42,635 bases of DNA from the IMG/VR virus record IMGVR_UViG_3300010206_000012, positions 1-42,635 of that record; one strand, written 5' to 3'. Below, one piece after another: positions 6,546-33,596 of the stretch. How positions within the stretch are numbered: the first letter of the stretch is position 1; each line of letters begins with the position of its first letter. The DNA is from a virus. Taxonomy: Duplodnaviria; Caudoviricetes. The notes beneath the pieces are model-generated. The model made no database searches and was not told the origin of the DNA. It saw only the letters and a program-made list of their open reading frames with translations. The position numbers and the translations under genes are program-made.

Positions 6546-9022
6546 TGATTGCCTCCCAAGGCATTCCCAAGGTCAGGCAGACGTGAGGGTTTGTTTTGGC
6601 CGTGCTGCCACCAGAAGCCCGTGCCGTAGTCGCGTTGTTGCTGGCGCATGTAGCGGTGGAAATCTGCTTCGGCGCTGGGGTCGATGAAGCGCAGCATGTT
6701 GTCTTCGACCAGCCGCCCAAACGCCGTGCGGATGGCCCAGTTCGACGCCAGCGGATTGTTGCGCAGCACGAACTTCGCATTGTCCTTGGCGAAATGCGTC
6801 TCTTTCCCTTGGAAAGCCTTGACGACATTGGGGCCGTTGGCGCGCATCGCGTCGGCGATCAGGCCAACCGTTGGTCCCGCCAGAACCTCGGCCAAGTCGC
6901 CCCCGGTGCGGCTGGTGGCGCTGGTCAGGAAATCGCCCAGAATGCCGATTGATCCGCCCTGCAGGAAGGCCGCAATCCAGAACTCCGGCGTATCCATCGG
7001 GCGCGGGTCGCGGCCCTTGATGATTTCGCGCAACTGCAGCGAGAACGCCCCGAACAATGTCGACGCCGCCGCCAGCGATGCGGCCCAGGCAAGCCCCCTC
7101 GCGCCACCAACGTCGCGCGCGCGGCGCTGCACATTGATCATCATCATCACCGGATAGGATTTGAACTGCTTGCCGGATCGAATGAACTCGCCCCAAAACG
7201 TGCCCGGCGCCGTTCCCGCCGTCATCGCGGCTGTTGCTGCCGCGTTGCGCGTGGGCAGCGCCATTTCCACAAAGTCTTCGATGACCCCACCCAGCTTGAT
7301 CGCGATTTCTTCGGCTTCGGCACGTGGCAGGCTGGTGTTTTCCAAAAACCACTTCGGGTTGATGTGCTTGCCGCCCACCGGGTCGGTGAAGATCGCGCCG
7401 CTGTCGCGCACTGCGTCCCAATCCGCCGGGGTGAATTCGCGGTTGCGCAGGAGGTTTTTCGTGTTGCGCGGCAGCTTGTCGAAGCTGCGATCCGCAAGCT
7501 TTGCCAGATCCGCGCCGAACGCGGCGAACATCGACATCCGTTCGCGGTTGTCGATATAGGTCATCGCATTGAAGCGCATGGCCGTTTCGCTCAGCCAATT
7601 GCTCCAGTTCGACGACCAGATATCGCGGTCTGCCGAGATCCGGCCTTGGTTGTAACTGTGGGTTCGCTCCAGGATGAACCCCAGCTCGCGGCCCGTTTGC
7701 GCGTCCATGCCCAGGGTGGTCAGGTGGAAGGTTTCCTTCACCAGCTCCTTGATCGGCGAAAACGGGCTCATCCCGGCGGCCATCGAACTGAAGGCCATGG
7801 CTGGAATGTCGGTCATCATCGTCAGCGGCGACGAACCCAGCATGCTTGCCACGTTATAGTTGCGCACGTCGGAGCCGATCGCGGCAAGCACTTCGGAGCC
7901 CGGGTCATTGGCGCGGCCGCTCAGAACGCTCATCGTTCCGCGTGCCAGCTTCGCGCGCCAATGCAGTTTTTGCAGGCGCTTTTCCGCCTTCGGGCCACCC
8001 GCCATTTCGATGGCCTTTTCCGCCGTTTGAACGGCAAATTCCAAGCCCCCGGCCGGGTTCGGCCCAAAGCGGCGCATCAAGGCGATATCGCGCGCCATGC
8101 CGCCAAAATGGTTGATGATCGCCTCGAAAGGGTTGGCCGCGCCGAAAAGTTCGTTGTAGGCCATCCAGCCATCTGCATCCTTGAAATGCAGCACGCGGTG
8201 CCCAGTGCGGGCATTCTTTAGCCCGGCTGCGCCGAAGCTCATGCCCGGTTCGCGCTTCAGCCAGCCATGCCGGGTGCGGTTGCCGTAAAGCTCTTGCAGG
8301 AACTTGCGCGCATCCGCCTCAAGCGGCTTTGCCCCCTTGGCAACGGCAAAGGGCTTTCCGGTGTCGAAATTCTCGATCCGGCTCCAATCAAGGTTGGTAT
8401 AGAGCGCGCGAAACCATGCCTCGAAACCGGCCTTCTTGATCTTGGCCCAGTTGTGCGTATGCGGCAGGCCCCAATCGTCCAGCTTCGGAATGTCCATGCC
8501 GTAGCTGTTCGCAAGGCTGCGGGCGCGCTCGTATTGCTTCAAGATCGCCTCGGCCATCGCCTTGGCTGTCGCGTTGCCGCTGTTCTCGCCGAACAACTCT
8601 CGCACCACATCGCGCAGGCTGGATCGCTGACGAACCTCCCCAATAAGGTTGCGGGCGTGCGCGTTCATGAAGTCCGTGATGCCGCCAAGGAACTGGCGTT
8701 TCAGCCCCGCCTCTTCGCGCTCGGCCATCAACAGGTCTTCCTGAATTTGTGCCGGTCCCTTTTCGGCATCGGCATAGCGCGGGCCTTTTTCTTTCATCCA
8801 TTGCAGCCGTTTCAGCTCATAGTGCTGGCGGGCTTTTGCGCGTCTGGTGAAGCTGGCAACCACCTCATCACCAGCGGCAATGCGCGCATCCGCCTCCGTC
8901 ATGCGCTCGCTCAGCTTGTAGCGCTCAACCAGATCGAGGTATTCCTTCTGCGCCATGTCGGCGCGCGCCGGATCGACCTTTCCCGCCGCCTTCGCTGCCA
9001 TCAAGCAAGCGTCGAAATCCAT
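6542..9022 (-). CDS. Internal virion (ejection) protein
   Basis: 826 aa; GEFIRS..QFKSYP, GRDPRP and LQGGSIGILGDFL motifs seen in podophage ejection proteins; position before the tailspike. Confidence 0.65.
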   Translation of the reverse strand: MDFDACLMAAKAAGKVDPARADMAQKEYLDLVERYKLSERMTEADARIAAGDEVVASFTRRAKARQHYELKRLQWMKEKGPRYADAEKGPAQIQEDLLMAEREEAGLKRQFLGGITDFMNAHARNLIGEVRQRSSLRDVVRELFGENSGNATAKAMAEAILKQYERARSLANSYGMDIPKLDDWGLPHTHNWAKIKKAGFEAWFRALYTNLDWSRIENFDTGKPFAVAKGAKPLEADARKFLQELYGNRTRHGWLKREPGMSFGAAGLKNARTGHRVLHFKDADGWMAYNELFGAANPFEAIINHFGGMARDIALMRRFGPNPAGGLEFAVQTAEKAIEMAGGPKAEKRLQKLHWRAKLARGTMSVLSGRANDPGSEVLAAIGSDVRNYNVASMLGSSPLTMMTDIPAMAFSSMAAGMSPFSPIKELVKETFHLTTLGMDAQTGRELGFILERTHSYNQGRISADRDIWSSNWSNWLSETAMRFNAMTYIDNRERMSMFAAFGADLAKLADRSFDKLPRNTKNLLRNREFTPADWDAVRDSGAIFTDPVGGKHINPKWFLENTSLPRAEAEEIAIKLGGVIEDFVEMALPTRNAAATAAMTAGTAPGTFWGEFIRSGKQFKSYPVMMMINVQRRARDVGGARGLAWAASLAAASTLFGAFSLQLREIIKGRDPRPMDTPEFWIAAFLQGGSIGILGDFLTSATSRTGGDLAEVLAGPTVGLIADAMRANGPNVVKAFQGKETHFAKDNAKFVLRNNPLASNWAIRTAFGRLVEDNMLRFIDPSAEADFHRYMRQQQRDYGTGFWWQHGQNKPSRLPDLGNALGGNQ

Positions 9023-11955
9023 CAGAACACCCCTTTCAGCGCGCAGCTGGTCATGGCTGCAATCAGGTCGGTATCGGCTTGCAGATCGTCGAGCAGGTCA
9101 CCCACGGTGATCGTCGGCACCGTGCCCCCTTCGCCTGCCGGGCCAATCGGCACAGCCGTGTCGCGGCGCATCGACCAGCTGTCCTGCGCCGCGTCCAACT
9201 CGGTGGCGTCCGATATCGGTTTTCCGATATCGGCCTGAAGTTCCGCGTTGGCGCGGGCATCCGTTCCCAGCCACGATTTCATGTCCGCATCGAGCGCTGC
9301 AACGACCCGCTCAACTGCCGGGCTTTCCGCGCCGTCGGTGAACCGCGCAGCGTCGAATGCCGAAATATCGCCCAGCGGCTCAACCGGCGCGTCACCGCTC
9401 ACATCTCCCGTTCTGGCGGGGGTGAATGCCGTGCGCCCGTCGAAGCCCTCCACGGCGCGCGCCAGCGCCTGTGCGGGCGTCACCGGCGCGTCGAAGATAT
9501 CGGCCATGTCGGCGCGGCCCACCACGGCGGCCTCGGCCGCATAGCGGCGCAGGATCTCGCCCACCGCCTCGGCCGGGCGGGCGCGCTTGCCTTTGAAGAA
9601 GGCGCCGATCAGCGCTTCCACCAGCGGGTCACGATCGCCGAACAGATCGGCCTGCGCCAGCCGGTCGCGGATCGCGGCCAGAACGCCTTGGCCGTCCAGG
9701 TTCTCGGTTCGCGCCTTGGCGATCAGGCGCACCGTATCCATCAGCGCATCGGTGATGTCGAATTCGGCGCGCACATAGCCCGCCTCGATCATCGATCGGA
9801 ACGCCGCCCAATCAGGCGCCAGATCCTCGAGCATGCGCAGCAGGCTTTCGATGGCAGGGCTTTCCGTCTCGGCCGCCATGCGCAGCAGATCATCGGCGCC
9901 AAAAGCGCGGGCAAACAGCGCCGAACGGATCCGGCGCAGCCCGTCGATGTTCAGCCGCCCTTCGGCTGTCAGCAGCGCGGCGCGTTCCGATTGCGGCATC
10001 AGCGCCAGCATGGTGCGCACGAAACCGGCGTTCTCCGGGGCATTCAGGCCGCGACCCGGCTGATAGGCATCGAAGCTGCGGGCGGTCAGGTAATCGCCCT
10101 CAAGCCGCGCCTGTTCGCTGGGCGCCATGCGGGCGATCGAGCTGGTATTCGCTTCGCGCACGAAGGCGCGGCGTTCTTCGGGGGTGAACGTGTTGGTGCG
10201 CTCGGCCACCAGAACCGGGCGCGTTACCCCCTCGGGGATCTCGGCATGCTCGCGCACCGCCTTGAGATAGGCGGCATAGCCTTCCGGGTTTTCGGTCGCG
10301 GCCCGGTTCAGCGCCGCTACCCGGCCGTTGCCGCTTTCCACCACCATGTCGGGGCCAATGATCGGCGTGCCCCGGTCTGCCTCGGTCGCGGGCATCAGCC
10401 GGGCAGGGTCAAGCCGCGCCGCCATTTCGGCAATCTGTTCGTCGCTGGCCGCGCGAGAGCGGTCACGCGGCTGCAGATCTCCGGCCGCGGCCTTCAGTTC
10501 CGAGGCGTCGACGACACGGTAACGCACCGGGACGCGGGTGCCGCCCGGCGTCACCACCTCGTCGACACGGGTCGAGAAATCGCGTCGGCCACCAGTGTCA
10601 CTGCCGCGCGACGGGCCAGCATAGGCGCCGCTCGTGCCGGGGCGGAACTCGGCGTTCGGGCCGCGATAGCCGACCCAGGCACCTGTGCCCTGATCGCGGT
10701 AGATCCACTGGCCCAGCCGCTCTTGCAGCGCGGCCGTCATCTTTTCGCTGCCTTTCAGCCCCAGCGCAGCCTTGGCATCGCGCAGGGTCGATCCGACAAT
10801 CTGATAGGCACCCATCGGCGTGGCGACGCGGCCGATCTTCCCCTTCACCCACTGGCCATAGGCGCCATCCGGGGCCGAAAAGGCGATGGCTTCATCCACC
10901 GTCATCTCGGTCAGCTTCACACCGGAAAACGGCCCGCCTGCCCGGTTCGAGAAACTGAACAGCGCGTCATAATCGCCACCGCTCTCTCCCGCAAAAATCC
11001 CGCCTCGGATCGCCTGCCAGTTTGCGGGCGCATCCGGTGTCACGGGGGGCAGGCCATCGGCGGCGGCATGAACGGGCGGCTCCTGCCCCTTGCGCATTGC
11101 GGCCTCTGCGGCATCTGCGGCCAGCTCGCCCTGCAGGCCAGCGCCCTCGGCGGCCATTGCCGCATTTTCCGCCTGCTTGCGCCCCATGACGTAAGACAGC
11201 GCCCGGCCCGCGCCGCCCAGCACACCGGCAAAGGCAGCACCAGCCGCCCCGGCCAGCCCGATCTGGCCTGCGGTTTCCCCGGCGCTTACCTCGCGCCCCA
11301 TTTCTTCGGCAACGCCACGGCGCTTGAAGGCCATCGGCACTTCGGCGGCCATGTTGATCCCGGCTTCGGAGGCCATGAACTTCGCCATGCCCTTCCAGCC
11401 GGTGCCGGTTCCGCCGCCCGCAAAGAGCAGGGGCAGCGACCATTCATCGGTCAGCGCGACCGCGGCAGACCCGGCAAAGCGCGCGACGCCGTGGCTCGAA
11501 TAGCGCAGCACTGCATCTGCATCATCCAGCTCGATCTGGCGGCGCCGGTTCTTCTCGCGCTCCAGTTCTTCGCGGCTGGCGGGAAGCGGATAAAACGCCC
11601 CAGGGTCTGTTTGGCGGCGCTCCCTTACGATGTCGAAGATTTCGTCATCCGACATCTGAAAGGCGAATTGCTGCATCAGACGCGGATCCGGGTTGGCAGG
11701 GCCAGCGTCGCCGCTGAGCAGCCCGTAATCCTGCATCCCTTTCACATAGCCGGGCTCTTTCGCAAAGTTCTCGCCCTTGATCGCCTTGTAGGCGTCTTCC
11801 ATGATTTCGGCTTCGATATACCGATCATGGTTCCAATAGTTGCTGTCGGCTACATCGCGGGCCGCGCCCGCGGAAGCGGTTTCCCACCAGCCCGGAAACG
11901 TGCCCTCGAATTTCGGCAACGTCTCCGGGTCGCGCGGTTTCAGCGGCCAGTTCAT
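9022..11955 (-). CDS. Internal virion protein with lysozyme-like muramidase domain and ddrB-like ParB domain
   Basis: GESGGDY..LTEMTVDE..GAYQIV..TL (lambda-lysozyme-like); VRYRVVD..LQPRDRSR..LDPARL..GTPII..VVESGNGR (ddrB-ParB). Confidence 0.72.
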   Translation of the reverse strand: MNWPLKPRDPETLPKFEGTFPGWWETASAGAARDVADSNYWNHDRYIEAEIMEDAYKAIKGENFAKEPGYVKGMQDYGLLSGDAGPANPDPRLMQQFAFQMSDDEIFDIVRERRQTDPGAFYPLPASREELEREKNRRRQIELDDADAVLRYSSHGVARFAGSAAVALTDEWSLPLLFAGGGTGTGWKGMAKFMASEAGINMAAEVPMAFKRRGVAEEMGREVSAGETAGQIGLAGAAGAAFAGVLGGAGRALSYVMGRKQAENAAMAAEGAGLQGELAADAAEAAMRKGQEPPVHAAADGLPPVTPDAPANWQAIRGGIFAGESGGDYDALFSFSNRAGGPFSGVKLTEMTVDEAIAFSAPDGAYGQWVKGKIGRVATPMGAYQIVGSTLRDAKAALGLKGSEKMTAALQERLGQWIYRDQGTGAWVGYRGPNAEFRPGTSGAYAGPSRGSDTGGRRDFSTRVDEVVTPGGTRVPVRYRVVDASELKAAAGDLQPRDRSRAASDEQIAEMAARLDPARLMPATEADRGTPIIGPDMVVESGNGRVAALNRAATENPEGYAAYLKAVREHAEIPEGVTRPVLVAERTNTFTPEERRAFVREANTSSIARMAPSEQARLEGDYLTARSFDAYQPGRGLNAPENAGFVRTMLALMPQSERAALLTAEGRLNIDGLRRIRSALFARAFGADDLLRMAAETESPAIESLLRMLEDLAPDWAAFRSMIEAGYVRAEFDITDALMDTVRLIAKARTENLDGQGVLAAIRDRLAQADLFGDRDPLVEALIGAFFKGKRARPAEAVGEILRRYAAEAAVVGRADMADIFDAPVTPAQALARAVEGFDGRTAFTPARTGDVSGDAPVEPLGDISAFDAARFTDGAESPAVERVVAALDADMKSWLGTDARANAELQADIGKPISDATELDAAQDSWSMRRDTAVPIGPAGEGGTVPTITVGDLLDDLQADTDLIAAMTSCALKGVF

Positions 11956-28881: not shown

Positions 28882-30912
28882 TCATCGCCACTCGTCTCCC
28901 CATTCCTCGGGCATCGGCGGCGCTGCAGGCGGAACCGCTTGGGTCGGGGCCCTGTCCATCGGAAACGACATCATGCCGCCCACATTGCGCAGCGGCACAT
29001 AGACGCCGCGTGATCGCTGCCCGGCCAGCGTCAGCGGCTGGCTCACCGGCTCGGCGCCGATGATCCGCTTCGCACTCTGCGCCCAGACGCCGTTTGCCCA
29101 GGTCGAATGCTCGAACAGCTTCTTCAGGCCGGGCAGCGGGGCGTGGGGAATGAACAGCGCCGCCTTGTCGCCGCCGTCGCGCACGCGCAGGCCCACCTTG
29201 GCCAGCTTGTTGTTGGCCTCCTTGGCCGCGGCCTGCCTCAGCTCGTCGTCGATCGTCGCCTGATCGCTGATGCCCGCACAGCTGCCCACCAGTGATTTCG
29301 GCGCGGCTGGCAGCTGCGCGGCCACCTGCACCCATTGCGCCACGGTGAACATCTCGCCGCGCCGGAACACGTCGAACGGCTGGCCCATCAGGTGCATCAG
29401 CATGCTGTCGGCATCCGATCCGATCTCTTCGGTCTCGTGCACCGCCGCGCGCGCCGCCTTGGCCGCCCAGCCTGCCAGCTCCTCGGCGCTTGGCAGCCGC
29501 TCGTGCAGCGCCGCATCAGCCATGGCAAGCGTGGTGGCCCAGTTGTCGCCGTTGCGCCCCGACAGGCCCACCTCGGCCAGCGCCATGCGCCACAGCCCCA
29601 GCCGCTCGGCCCAGCTGGGCCAGCGATCGATCAGCGCCCGCTTCATCACCGCGCCCCAGGTGCGCAGCTTGCGCGCATCGAGGATCAGCTTGGGTGTGGC
29701 CGTATCGAGTGGCCGCAGGTGCAGCGTGATGAGCCTCGATCGATCCTGCGGTCCCATCTGGCCCGGGATCAGGATCGACGAGAACAGGAACGCCGAATAG
29801 ACGTTGCCGCTTGCCCCGGTCTGGTCGGCCGAGCCGCGCAGCCATTGCCCGCCGCTCGCCGCCACACGGGCCAGCTCGATCAGCGCTTTGCCCTTGGCGC
29901 CGCTTTCTTCGTCGGGCTCGATCTCATCCAGCGCCACGGGCAGCGAGGCATGGCCCAGCCGCGCCGTGATCCCGCTTTTCGTCGGGTCATTGGATTGAAC
30001 CAGCCCCTTGTCGCCCCCGTGCAGGTGGCGGATCAGATCCTGGAATGCGCTCTTGCCATAGGCCTTGTCGCCGGTGAGCCAATAGACCGGCCGCCAATCG
30101 AGCGCTCCGCCCATCGCCTGCACGCCCCACATGCCAAGCGCCACCATGGGCATCACCTCCTGGTGCTCCCAGCGCCAGGTCGAAAACATCGCCAGCACCT
30201 CGGGCGCAGGGTCAGATCGCCCCATCGCTGCCGCGGGTTCTGGAATGGGCGGATAGGCCGGATAGATCTTGCCGCCGATCTCGCCGGGGTCTTGCCGCCC
30301 CTCGGGCGTGATCAGGTAGCTGCCGCAGTGATAGATCAGCTTGCCGTCATCATCGCACCAGGCGCCAGCGCCGCGCACCGATCCCTGCGGGTTAAAGAGC
30401 CCGCGCTCGGCGCAGGCTGCCACCATTGTCATCGTCGCGCGCTGTGCGTCGAAGCGGAATTTCTGCGGCTCGGTGCCGCCCTTGCCATAGGTCGGGAAAT
30501 GGCGGCACAGCAGCTGGTTTTTCTCGCCGAAGAGGCTGACGATCGTGCCGTTCTTGTGCTCCTTCACCGCGCGCATCTGGCCGTGGCGATCAAGGTAGTA
30601 GCAATGATCGCCATTCACCCCCAGCGGCTTGACCGGGCATCCCTCCCAGATCTCGCCGCGTGGACGGCCGGGCCCTTTCGGGGGCGGCGCGGCATCTTTC
30701 GGTGTCGCATCGGCCGCGCCCTCGGTCGGGCCAGCGACAATCGGCGCCTCCTCGAGCTCGCGCGCCAGACCCTCCGGCGTCAGTCGCCCTTCGGCAATCG
30801 CCTTGCCTTCCGCCGCGGCCTTGCGCTTTTTGGCATGCATCGCATCAAGCGCGCCCTGCTTGCGGGCCGCGAGCTCGGCCTTGAAATCGACAGGGTCGGG
30901 GGCGTCCGTCAT
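28882..30912 (-). CDS. Replicative helicase / DNA-dependent ATPase (SF3, DUF927-like)
   Basis: Walker A LTGDKAYGKS, Walker B VALDEIE, D.SR motif; C-terminal winged-helix-like region. Confidence 0.72.
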   Translation of the reverse strand: MTDAPDPVDFKAELAARKQGALDAMHAKKRKAAAEGKAIAEGRLTPEGLARELEEAPIVAGPTEGAADATPKDAAPPPKGPGRPRGEIWEGCPVKPLGVNGDHCYYLDRHGQMRAVKEHKNGTIVSLFGEKNQLLCRHFPTYGKGGTEPQKFRFDAQRATMTMVAACAERGLFNPQGSVRGAGAWCDDDGKLIYHCGSYLITPEGRQDPGEIGGKIYPAYPPIPEPAAAMGRSDPAPEVLAMFSTWRWEHQEVMPMVALGMWGVQAMGGALDWRPVYWLTGDKAYGKSAFQDLIRHLHGGDKGLVQSNDPTKSGITARLGHASLPVALDEIEPDEESGAKGKALIELARVAASGGQWLRGSADQTGASGNVYSAFLFSSILIPGQMGPQDRSRLITLHLRPLDTATPKLILDARKLRTWGAVMKRALIDRWPSWAERLGLWRMALAEVGLSGRNGDNWATTLAMADAALHERLPSAEELAGWAAKAARAAVHETEEIGSDADSMLMHLMGQPFDVFRRGEMFTVAQWVQVAAQLPAAPKSLVGSCAGISDQATIDDELRQAAAKEANNKLAKVGLRVRDGGDKAALFIPHAPLPGLKKLFEHSTWANGVWAQSAKRIIGAEPVSQPLTLAGQRSRGVYVPLRNVGGMMSFPMDRAPTQAVPPAAPPMPEEWGDEWR

Positions 30913-30957: not shown

Positions 30958-30986
30958 TTGCAAAATAGTGCCAATGGCACTAATTT
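30958..30986 (+). promoter_or_regulatory. Promoter with perfect palindromic operator
   Basis: TTGCAA-17 bp-TAATTT with TAGTGCCA-A-TGGCACTA (30966-30982) filling the spacer. Confidence 0.75.
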
Positions 30987-31034
30987 AGAGATGTCGCCAG
31001 CGCAATGACGCGCGCCTTTTGAGGAGCCGACATC

Positions 31035-31691
31035 ATGAAGCAATCCCCCATCTACGCCGCCATCTTCAACGCTTGGAAAGCTCGCCCCGGGCAGGCCGTG
31101 CACATCGACACCGCAGAAGTGGCAAAACTCATCCGCGGCCAGTTGAAGGCGAAATTTCCCGCCACCAAGTTCTCCGTGCGGATCTCGCGCTACTCGGGCG
31201 GCAGCTCGATCAACGTCGACTGGATCGATGGACCGATCGCCGCCATGGTCGAACCCATCGCGCGCCAATACAGCGGCGCAGGTTTCGACGGTATGCAGGA
31301 TCTCAAATATTACTTCGGCAACTGGCTCATGCCCGATGGCTCGGCCTCGCTGCGCGAAAGCCCAGAGCGCTGGGGCGTCGAAGCCGAGACCCTCGAGGCC
31401 GAGAAAGACGGCGCCATTCCTGTGAGCTTCGGCGGCTGTTTCATCTTCTGCCATCGCGAAATCTCGATCGAGGCGATGCGCCGCGCCCTCGCCAGCTATG
31501 CGGCGCGCTACCGTGGCGACGATCTCGCCGACGCAATTCAAGCCGGAAAGGTGGGCGTCGAGGCTAGCCAATGGGGCGGCTGGCGGTTCTTTGGCGAGCC
31601 CTACGGCTATTCCGGCGTGGGCGCGGGATCGCAGTATGGCGGCGACGCGGTGCTGCGCTCCTGGGCGGCGCGCCGAATGCTGGCCGCGTGA
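31035..31691 (+). CDS. LPD29 (large polyvalent protein domain 29) protein
   Basis: AKLIR..LK..FP..KFSVR...YSGGSSI.V.W.DGP...Y....FDGM.D; GAGGAG RBS. Confidence 0.75.
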   Translation: MKQSPIYAAIFNAWKARPGQAVHIDTAEVAKLIRGQLKAKFPATKFSVRISRYSGGSSINVDWIDGPIAAMVEPIARQYSGAGFDGMQDLKYYFGNWLMPDGSASLRESPERWGVEAETLEAEKDGAIPVSFGGCFIFCHREISIEAMRRALASYAARYRGDDLADAIQAGKVGVEASQWGGWRFFGEPYGYSGVGAGSQYGGDAVLRSWAARRMLAA

Positions 31692-31757
31692 TCCTTTGGT
31701 GCGGGGCGAGCAGATCGCCCCCATCCCAAGGACCAGATCTGAACTAGGAGAAATCAG

Positions 31758-31913
31758 ATGAAACGGAGTGTTTTCGAGAAAAACGGCAAGGCCTACCAGC
31801 GGGCAGAATTCGACAGCTTCGAAGAGCTTGAGGCCTTTTTCGTTGCCCAGATCCTGGGCGGCCCCTACAAAAGCAAGGTGATCGGCAAGGTGCTGATCTA
31901 CTGGAGCGCCTGA
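31758..31913 (+). CDS. 51-aa hypothetical protein (below the ORF-track cutoff)
   Basis: AGGAG RBS; MKRSVFEKNGKAYQRAEFDSFEELEAFFVAQILGGPYKSKVIGKVLIYWSA. Confidence 0.7.
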   Translation: MKRSVFEKNGKAYQRAEFDSFEELEAFFVAQILGGPYKSKVIGKVLIYWSA

Positions 31914-31916
31914 TCC

Positions 31917-32123
31917 ATGACCCCCGCCGAATTCAAGGCTGCCCGTGTCAGCCTCGGCCTGACGCAAGCCCAGCTTGGCGTCATTCTCGACACCAACCCG
32001 ACGACAATCCGCCGCTGGGAAGCCGCGCCGGATCAAAGCATGGCGCGCCCGCCCAATCCGGTGGCGTGCCAGGTGCTGCGCTGGATGCTCAACGGCTTTC
32101 GCCCGCCGGAATTCCCCGCCTGA
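31917..32123 (+). CDS. XRE-type HTH protein, Aca-like
   Basis: MTPAEFKAARVSLGLTQAQLG..L....TIRRWEAA; last gene of a small operon with a palindromic operator. Confidence 0.8.
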   Translation: MTPAEFKAARVSLGLTQAQLGVILDTNPTTIRRWEAAPDQSMARPPNPVACQVLRWMLNGFRPPEFPA

Positions 32124-32299: not shown

Positions 32300-32457
32300 C
32301 ATTCCCGCTCCGCTTTGGCGGCGGCAACATCGGGCGGCACAAAGCCCAGATCCTCGTCGATCAGCTCTTCATCGATCGGCCCTTCGAGCGCCTCGACCAG
32401 CCAGCCAAACCAGTGCGCCGCCAGCGCTGCAGCTGCTGCAACAAACTCGCCCATCAT
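32299..32457 (-). CDS. Small hypothetical protein
   Basis: ATGA-coupled to the primase; hydrophobic N-terminus, acidic C-terminus. Confidence 0.45.
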   Translation of the reverse strand: MMGEFVAAAAALAAHWFGWLVEALEGPIDEELIDEDLGFVPPDVAAAKAERE

Positions 32458-33596
32458 GCCTCCTCGTCCCTCGCCTGCGCCAGTTTCAGCGCGTCGTTGA
32501 TGTCCTTGCCGCCATGCAGGTTGCGCCACAGCCGCACGGTGCGGCCCTGGGCGCAGAACTGTGCGGCCGCCCTGTCAGTGACCGCGCGGGTTTCCGGGGC
32601 AGCGTCCTGATCCGCCACGAAAACCACTTCCGAAATCGCTTCGGGCAGTCGCAGATTGGCGAAGTTGGTATTGGCGATCGCTGCCATCACCCGCGCATGC
32701 GGCAACAGCATCGCAACGCTGAGCGCGTCCTCGATCCCCTCGGTCAGATACACCCGGCTTCCGGGCTCAGCCTCGGACAAGGATTTGCCTCGGCCACCGC
32801 GCGGCCCAAGCCCGCGCCAGATCCGGATTGCCGCGCCCTTGTAATCGCCGTAAACCTTCTTGGGCTTTGGAAGCGGTGCCTTGCCCCAGCGACCGTCAGG
32901 GCCGAGCGCCAGCCAGGTGCGATGGCAGCTCACCGGGTTTCCCGCCATGTCGGTGATCAGCGCCAGCATCGCCGGTGCCTGACCGCGAAACACCTCGCCC
33001 GTCTCCGGATCCGTCTGGTTGTAATTGAGCTGCGGATGATAGCGCAGCGCCTTGGGCTGATGCCCCAGCTGCGCCAGGTCGATGCCACGTGCCGCGCGCA
33101 GATAGGCTTCTACCGGCGTGCCGCTGATCCGCTCCTGTCCAGACAGCCACAGCGCAAAGGCGCGCTTCTGCCGCTGCACATGCTCGGCCCGCGCCGCGCG
33201 CTCGGCCTCGGCGCGTTGCGCCCGGGCCCGATCGGCCGCTTCCTTGCGCCGCGCCACATCCTCGGGGCTGTCGGATTGCAGGCCCAGAAACGACCGCGCC
33301 TCGCGAAACGCCTCCTTCAGGGTGCAGCCCAGATTGAGGGCGATCAGGTCGAGCAGATCGCCCTTCTCGGCGGTGGCGTAATCGTTCCACCGGCCCGCCT
33401 TCGGCCCGTCGATCCACACAACAAAACTGCCCACGCTGCGATCGGGGCGGCCGGGGTTGAGCGTCCAGTAGCCGCCCTTGTCCTCGTAGCTGCCAGGGCA
33501 CGCAGGCGCATAGCGATAGGCAACCTGATGGCGCTGCGCGTGCAGCAAGTCCTTCACGTCTTCCACGCTCAGCGTCTGGCGGGCCGGGGCAGTCAT
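32454..33596 (-). CDS. DNA primase (TOPRIM)
   Basis: W.DYAT..KGDLLDLI, EAYLR.RGI, HRTWL, LTEGIEDALS, FVADQD, GKDINDAL. Confidence 0.88.
   Translation of the reverse strand: MTAPARQTLSVEDVKDLLHAQRHQVAYRYAPACPGSYEDKGGYWTLNPGRPDRSVGSFVVWIDGPKAGRWNDYATAEKGDLLDLIALNLGCTLKEAFREARSFLGLQSDSPEDVARRKEAADRARAQRAEAERAARAEHVQRQKRAFALWLSGQERISGTPVEAYLRAARGIDLAQLGHQPKALRYHPQLNYNQTDPETGEVFRGQAPAMLALITDMAGNPVSCHRTWLALGPDGRWGKAPLPKPKKVYGDYKGAAIRIWRGLGPRGGRGKSLSEAEPGSRVYLTEGIEDALSVAMLLPHARVMAAIANTNFANLRLPEAISEVVFVADQDAAPETRAVTDRAAAQFCAQGRTVRLWRNLHGGKDINDALKLAQARDEEA

Follow-up and report, generated by a model that had tools for sequence, protein, structure and literature searches.

Among the markers that point to anti-defence genes through guilt by association, aca genes are the principal one. 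In the portions of the literature compared here (PMC13551039, PMC8633003, PMC9410881, PMC9410906, PMC12658196, PMC5512222, PMC6536676 and PMC9765179), the named Aca families come from gamma- and betaproteobacteria and from Firmicutes. In Aca1, residues R47, R44 and R59 read operator positions 6, 5 and 2, respectively (PMC8633003; positions are numbered from the centre by our own count). The predicted Aca10 and Aca12 RNA motifs gave no binding in electrophoretic mobility shift assays according to the parts of PMC13551039 covered. The same portions of the literature hold no description of the helix-turn-helix (HTH) family or of the RNA hairpin that are the subject of this work, although the motif logos and cluster lists of PMC13551039 could include some of these loci.

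The DNA under study (the window) is a whole virus record of 42.6 kb, which encodes an integrase and a CI-like repressor along with terminase, portal and major head genes and, therefore, belongs to a temperate phage. Its host can be inferred to be alphaproteobacterial, since the relatives of one helicase-family gene and of the HTH protein discussed below are mostly found in Rhodobacteraceae/Paracoccaceae genomes. Among the late genes, positions 9022-11955 encode a protein of 977 aa that includes a DdrB-like ParB domain, a domain that has been reported adjoining virion genes (PMC5512222, in the part covered). Between two replication genes, the phage carries what is probably a swappable early-gene cassette, in which an HTH autorepressor would act on a palindrome, and possibly on a hairpin, to limit to an entry burst the expression of a cargo with a likely counter-defence role. 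Its parts and flanks are as follows.

28882-30912, minus strand: flanking primase/helicase-family gene, divergent from the cassette promoter
30958-30986, plus strand: predicted sigma70-type promoter-like site (-35 TTGCAA, 17 nt, -10 TAATTT)
30966-30982, either strand: palindromic operator in the promoter spacer, family consensus TAG(C/G/T)GCC-A-W-T-GGC(G/C/A)CTA
30991-31033, plus strand: predicted outer stem (30991-30996 pairing with 31028-31033) enclosing the hairpin and the ribosome-binding site (RBS; 31021-31026)
31000-31013, plus strand: conserved 5'-UTR hairpin with a 4-bp stem and an AAUGA(A/C) loop, a likely translational operator
31035-31691, plus strand: cargo 1, LPD29-domain protein of 218 aa (Pfam PF18847, E 2.6e-20)
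31689-31735, plus strand: strong intergenic hairpin without a U tract (z -3.62 for 31689-31760)
31758-31913, plus strand: cargo 2, 51-aa protein of no known family (RBS AGGAG at 31746-31750)
31917-32123, plus strand: terminal 68-aa HTH regulator with an Aca1-like fold in its model, a likely autorepressor
32454-33596, minus strand: flanking DUF7146-Toprim primase (DUF7146 and Toprim domains), convergent with the cassette

The layout given by a first-pass annotation of this DNA, an inverted three-gene unit set in a minus-strand primase-to-helicase run, with an LPD29 protein in first place, a 51-aa open reading frame preceded by AGGAG and an HTH protein at the end, was borne out at each of these points, all three reading frames lying on the plus strand between the minus-strand primase and the minus-strand primase/helicase-family gene. 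The same slot, in the same orientation and with other cargo, is occupied in 10 related phages (a biased sample, as they were found through the HTH), and across relatives the order is fixed: promoter with palindrome, hairpin, variable cargo, HTH. A search with the helicase only, over 401 genomes, gave four relatives that lack the cassette, and in one further locus (L212) the slot is taken up by LPD29 and, after it, an HTH of another family; locus searches of viral contigs that started from a single protein, either LPD29 or the helicase, found nothing. These comparisons mark the cassette as an accessory insertion whose cargo can be exchanged. In three other loci (L038, L145 and L166) a cargo protein of 190-200 aa (phrog_37844) opens a cassette in the primase-helicase slot.

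The terminal protein matches the Pfam HTH_3 family at 24.4 bits (cut-off 23). Homologues number 73 proteins at E <= 1e-8, which are 50-78% identical when the window's own protein is excluded; a profile search returned 413 clusters at 1e-10, including repeat-rich unrelated HTH proteins. The family is tight and common to Rhodobacteraceae and related phages and prophages, while a search of plasmids gave no match. Loci were drawn from viral, genome and metagenome contigs and from annotated phages: 189 had an HTH match, 129 of them at 70 bits or more, and 106 were left, the window included, once near-duplicates had been removed. Four proteins of 140-190 aa (P0114, P0115, P0116 and P0119) carry two matches to the HTH each and are possibly single-chain dimers. 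The structural model of the 68-aa protein (pLDDT 97.8) consists almost entirely of the HTH plus one helix, and a structural search with it ranked the Aca1-DNA structure first (TM 0.81, rmsd 1.8, E 0.03), the HigA2 antitoxin scoring nearly as high and MqsA domains also being near. Two general traits of Aca systems are found here, namely a small HTH gene that ends an operon on a mobile element and, as described next, a conserved inverted repeat overlapping the promoter of the cassette.

The promoter-like site proposed earlier is present, with -35 TTGCAA at 30958-30963 and -10 TAATTT at 30981-30986 separated by a 17-nt spacer. It fell below the threshold of a consensus promoter scan, and was not listed by it, because its -10 hexamer matches weakly; relatives have a better -10 (TATATT consensus) at the same place and, in most of 58 cases, a TTG at the matching offset. 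The perfect 8-bp inverted repeat at 30966-30982, which had also been described, lies across the spacer and covers bases 1 and 2 of the -10 hexamer, and it is the single match to the palindrome in the window at up to three mismatches, against a chance mean of 0.06. A sigma-54 reading of the minus strand, considered by eye, was rejected, its spacing falling one base below the consensus.

The palindrome accompanies the HTH, and its arms covary. A leave-one-out matrix was built from 31 perfect palindromes of the upstream regions; at 14 bits or more, and in loci of at least 700 nt, it placed the operator upstream of the HTH in 54 of 92 cases and downstream in none of 89; the other 38 of the 92 have no operator at this threshold, with variants in some. 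Operator sites lie 16-17 nt past a TTG. Among 58 sites, both arms always have G6 and CC at positions 3 and 2, while position 5 varies (G, C or T) and is complementary between the arms in 57 of them, as compared with a shuffle mean of 23, a contrast that is inflated by the relatedness of the loci. At the centre, 28 of the sites have A and 29 have T, and this near-equality fits a strand-symmetric DNA site. Furthermore, a scan for operator plus hairpin that took no account of the protein yielded 16 viral loci, several of them near-identical, of which 15 end in the same HTH family; the sixteenth is cut off only 308 nt downstream. In one locus (L180), a single HTH is preceded by two promoters that carry the operator and by four hairpins, that is, an arrangement of multi-operon control.

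The base-reading residues of Aca1 provide a further point of contact, since R44, R47 and R59 align to HTH residues 29, 32 and 44, respectively. R32 and R44 of the HTH are nearly or fully invariant, and the matching bases, G6 and C2, do not vary among the 58 sites. Mutual information with the operator base peaks at HTH column 29: after one truncated HTH had been left out, Arg29 goes with G5 in 26 of 26 loci, and all 31 others, with C or T at this position, lack G5. Another 27 loci, several of them near-duplicates, are concordant (23 with Arg-G and 4 with other pairs). On the tree, which is poorly resolved, the residue-base code changes three times, each time concordantly, and a sign test is underpowered, as three changes cannot reach significance. 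The pair found in the window itself, T29/T5, departs from the usual T29/C5. Taken together, the pairing of residue 29 with base 5 is suggestive of, and fits, the mode of reading in the Aca1 structure.

We are therefore confident, at the level that sequence and modelling allow, that an HTH dimer binds the palindrome and blocks RNA polymerase, i.e. that the cassette is autorepressed. The cycle may be pictured as follows. On cell entry, the strong promoter would be fired by the host polymerase, so that cargo and HTH are made; the HTH dimer would then contact the palindrome, with R32, R44 and residue 29 serving it as R47, R59 and R44 serve Aca1, and close the promoter, stopping RNA polymerase. The outcome would be a burst of cargo in the new cell followed by shut-off, which, more speculatively, may also limit head-on transcription into the primase-helicase unit.

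A second layer of control may be sought in the leader, where a hairpin that the first-pass annotation did not list is placed just past the predicted transcription start. In 41 hand-picked leaders, 162 of 162 cells are paired, with G-C, A-U and C-G exchanges and no G-U, two of the pairs showing two-sided changes. When the hairpin pattern was sought over the 106 loci, 91 copies were upstream in the sense orientation, none was antisense and one was downstream, in similar amounts of DNA; as these loci had themselves supplied the pattern, the evidence lies in the bias of strand and position, not in the count. Indeed, 88 of the 92 copies precede, by 16-24 nt, an ATG that has an RBS-like motif, and in 46 of 58 operator loci the hairpin is found 15-40 nt past the operator. 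Several cassettes repeat it before internal genes, at some of these places without an operator. A covariance model of the leader also matches upstream of more distant HTHs that had been left out of its building; it gave no match to the JBD30 aca1 leader, and an Rfam search of the leader returned no meaningful match. A stem akin to the predicted outer stem occurs in 20 of 48 leaders, and the fold energy of the window's leader is not above that of shuffled sequences (z -0.19). Between the two cargo genes (31689-31760), the intergenic hairpin is followed by a short stem that encloses the RBS of the 51-aa gene.

The hairpin can be read in two ways. It may be that the same HTH binds the hairpin beside each RBS, thereby blocking translation as Aca2 does, or that the HTH acts through DNA only, in which case the hairpin could enhance translation, act as a signal for RNA stability or processing, be bound by a host protein or serve as a repeated recombination handle that drives cargo shuffling. 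The DNA-only reading, to which we give a substantial, if minority, share of belief, draws on the subclade with Asp29 (L053, L056, L062, L065, L067 and L069), in which the palindrome, where a promoter is visible, is of the GTGAC..GTCAC type and the same hairpin is kept, so that the hairpin does not follow DNA specificity, on the flanking sequence that repeated leaders have in common and on the unbound Aca10 and Aca12 motifs mentioned above. Against it, the hairpin is nearly confined to the region upstream of this HTH family, with one further copy in 68 LPD29 loci besides the single family member among them, and it sits where the RNA motifs of Aca1 and Aca2 sit (PMC13551039, in the part covered). 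With the Aca10 and Aca12 precedents on one side and position and repetition as in Aca1 and Aca2 on the other, binding of the leader hairpin RNA by the HTH is about an even bet, towards which we lean slightly.

As for the cargo, 181 genes, as called in this analysis, fall into 117 families, 87 of which are singletons, with a median length of 76 aa and one to four genes per cassette; they come from 115 loci that were not deduplicated. The expectation that genes upstream of the HTH homologues would be variable and small is confirmed; known Acrs, the other support named with it, did not turn up: none of the 117 family representatives matched a known Acr in NCBIfam (a single match among the 117 was sub-threshold), none was found in the cargo scanned with Pfam and PHROGs, and a link to CRISPR is not supported by these scans. 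Among 73 proteins scanned, ArdC was recognized in L081, L115 and L128, LPD29 in L047, and DUF4942 with a methyltransferase-like part in L048; in a set of 59 proteins, ArdA and GP88 were recognized in L053 and DUF6011 in L180. L053 has one hairpin before each of its ArdA, GP88 and 110-aa genes. Recognized anti-defence proteins account for only two of the 117 families.

In the window, the LPD29 protein is a member of PF18847 by a clear margin (73.3 bits, gathering cut-off 27) and, at 218 aa, it does not fit the description of the cargo genes as small, which holds for the 51-aa one. It has 37 homologues; the form found here is stand-alone with a C-terminal helical extension, and forms fused with PF18840 exist. 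Its confident model gave no Foldseek match, and the best Z, 7.8, was to small BON/KH/OsmC-like domains (residues 17-144), a similarity within the range of common arrangements from which no function is drawn. LPD29 is not tied to this HTH family, which occurs in one of 68 non-redundant LPD29 loci: among nine genes downstream of LPD29, picked by eye, one is Aca2-like above the cut-off and the rest include weaker HTH and RHH matches, and in L266 (3768-4232) an Aca2/YdiL-like gene lies two genes downstream of the LPD29 gene. LPD29 is also present in aca4 operons (PMC13551039, in the part covered), and the portions of the LPD29 literature covered report no experimental function. For the 51-aa protein, one homologue was found, which is 61% identical to it across 78% of its length, and atlas searches with this protein and with a 55-aa cargo protein were uninformative. 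For neither cargo protein of the window did the searches support the anti-defence function that had been proposed for them. Still, because the cargo of known function is anti-restriction, counter-defence is the favoured reading, and it seems reasonable, with some reserve, to expect that most cargo, including these two proteins, counters host defence, restriction being the best-supported target; exclusion or takeover are possible roles.

These latter roles are central to the alternative by which the cassette is a general platform for early or lysogenic-conversion genes, its cargo serving superinfection exclusion, host takeover or phage-phage competition. The largest cargo family (23 genes) speaks for it, consisting of proteins of 50-70 aa with a helical N-terminal part and a hydrophobic C-terminus, which match no Pfam family, are candidates for an exclusion protein or a membrane toxin and are often found alone with the HTH in two-gene units (L031:4816-5001, L046:369-533, about 20 more loci and phage Pkon1, where one such unit is inverted inside the lysis module); so do GP88, DUF6011 and DUF4942, cargo without a shown anti-defence role, and the fact that most families are unannotated. 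However, the cargo of known function consists of ArdA, ArdC and a methyltransferase-like protein, and tight shut-off would suit an entry burst over steady expression in the lysogen, so that we regard such a platform as rather improbable.

The HTH family offers such a guilt-by-association marker for alphaproteobacterial phages, with about 117 cargo families listed, nearly all of them unannotated, and the cassette likely marks more than 100 candidate counter-defence genes. The HTH is a further candidate for a protein reading both DNA and RNA, and the natural residue-base switch can be tested by one mutation; the cultured Paracoccus phage Pkon1 carries the cassette. With this family, what LPD29 does also becomes open to direct tests. 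In its most ambitious form, which we offer tentatively and would not yet back, an undescribed Aca lineage would exert two-level control, through a DNA operator and through an RNA hairpin repeated ahead of single genes, over counter-defence that is not directed at CRISPR, a switch of one residue and one base would insulate co-resident phages from each other, and a 14-nt hairpin would tag more than 100 anti-defence families, LPD29 included.

Comparison with described systems places the cassette among these. A toxin-antitoxin system of the HigBA or MqsRA type, in which the upstream gene would encode a toxin and the HTH both antitoxin and autorepressor (a possibility that the first-pass annotation had itself raised), has in its favour the same gene order, with the HTH downstream, the HTH fold, with HigA2 and MqsA domains as close structural neighbours, and a weak, sub-threshold match to the MqsA family, but is very unlikely, as no fixed partner is found: variable multi-gene cargo of 117 unrelated families, at one to four genes per cassette, takes the place of a conserved cognate toxin, no toxin family reaches the cut-off in it, ArdA and ArdC are not toxins and the 68-aa protein is almost entirely HTH plus one helix.

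Among the Aca families, Aca2 resembles the present system in having leader RNA motifs also between operon genes (PMC13551039, in the part covered), but it is a 125-aa DUF1870 protein with another motif, and RNA binding is shown for Aca2 and predicted here. The resemblance to Aca3 noted in the first-pass annotation holds for residues 2-42 only; of the solved structures, Aca3 is the one that matches best in sequence (E 3.2e-6); its context is Neisseria type II-C, and in fold and operator geometry the HTH is nearer to Aca1 and Aca10. Aca10 (acrIC7-acrIC6-aca10) has the same -35 hexamer, the same operator geometry and a CA-W-TG centre (PMC9410881, in the part covered), a covarying DNA motif with a predicted RNA motif (PMC13551039, likewise) and a weak sequence match (E 0.0035, residues 3-39); the operator arms and the leader are different, identity is 24% and no AcrIC cargo is found, so that neither Aca10 homology nor an Aca10 operator can be claimed. 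Aca1 (acrIF1-aca1 of the Pseudomonas phage JBD30) is the top structural match, with aligned base-reading arginines, 8-bp arms around a 1-nt centre in the -35/-10 spacer and a hairpin directly past the start site whose end lies some 20 nt ahead of the start codon (PMC13551039, in the part covered). However, identity to it is 14-15% in structural and profile alignments, with a profile probability of 46%, which falls short of family-level homology; its GGCAC half-site and its RNA motif are replaced here by a different core and a different hairpin, and the present cassette resides in alphaproteobacterial hosts with no acr cargo found. The HTH would work in the manner of Aca1, Aca2 and Aca10. Lying outside these families by sequence and operator, and with no acr partner found in the cargo scanned, it cannot be counted as an Aca in the strict sense. 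Within this comparison with named families, it is best described, from its sequence and predicted structure, as an unnamed Aca-like autoregulatory family.
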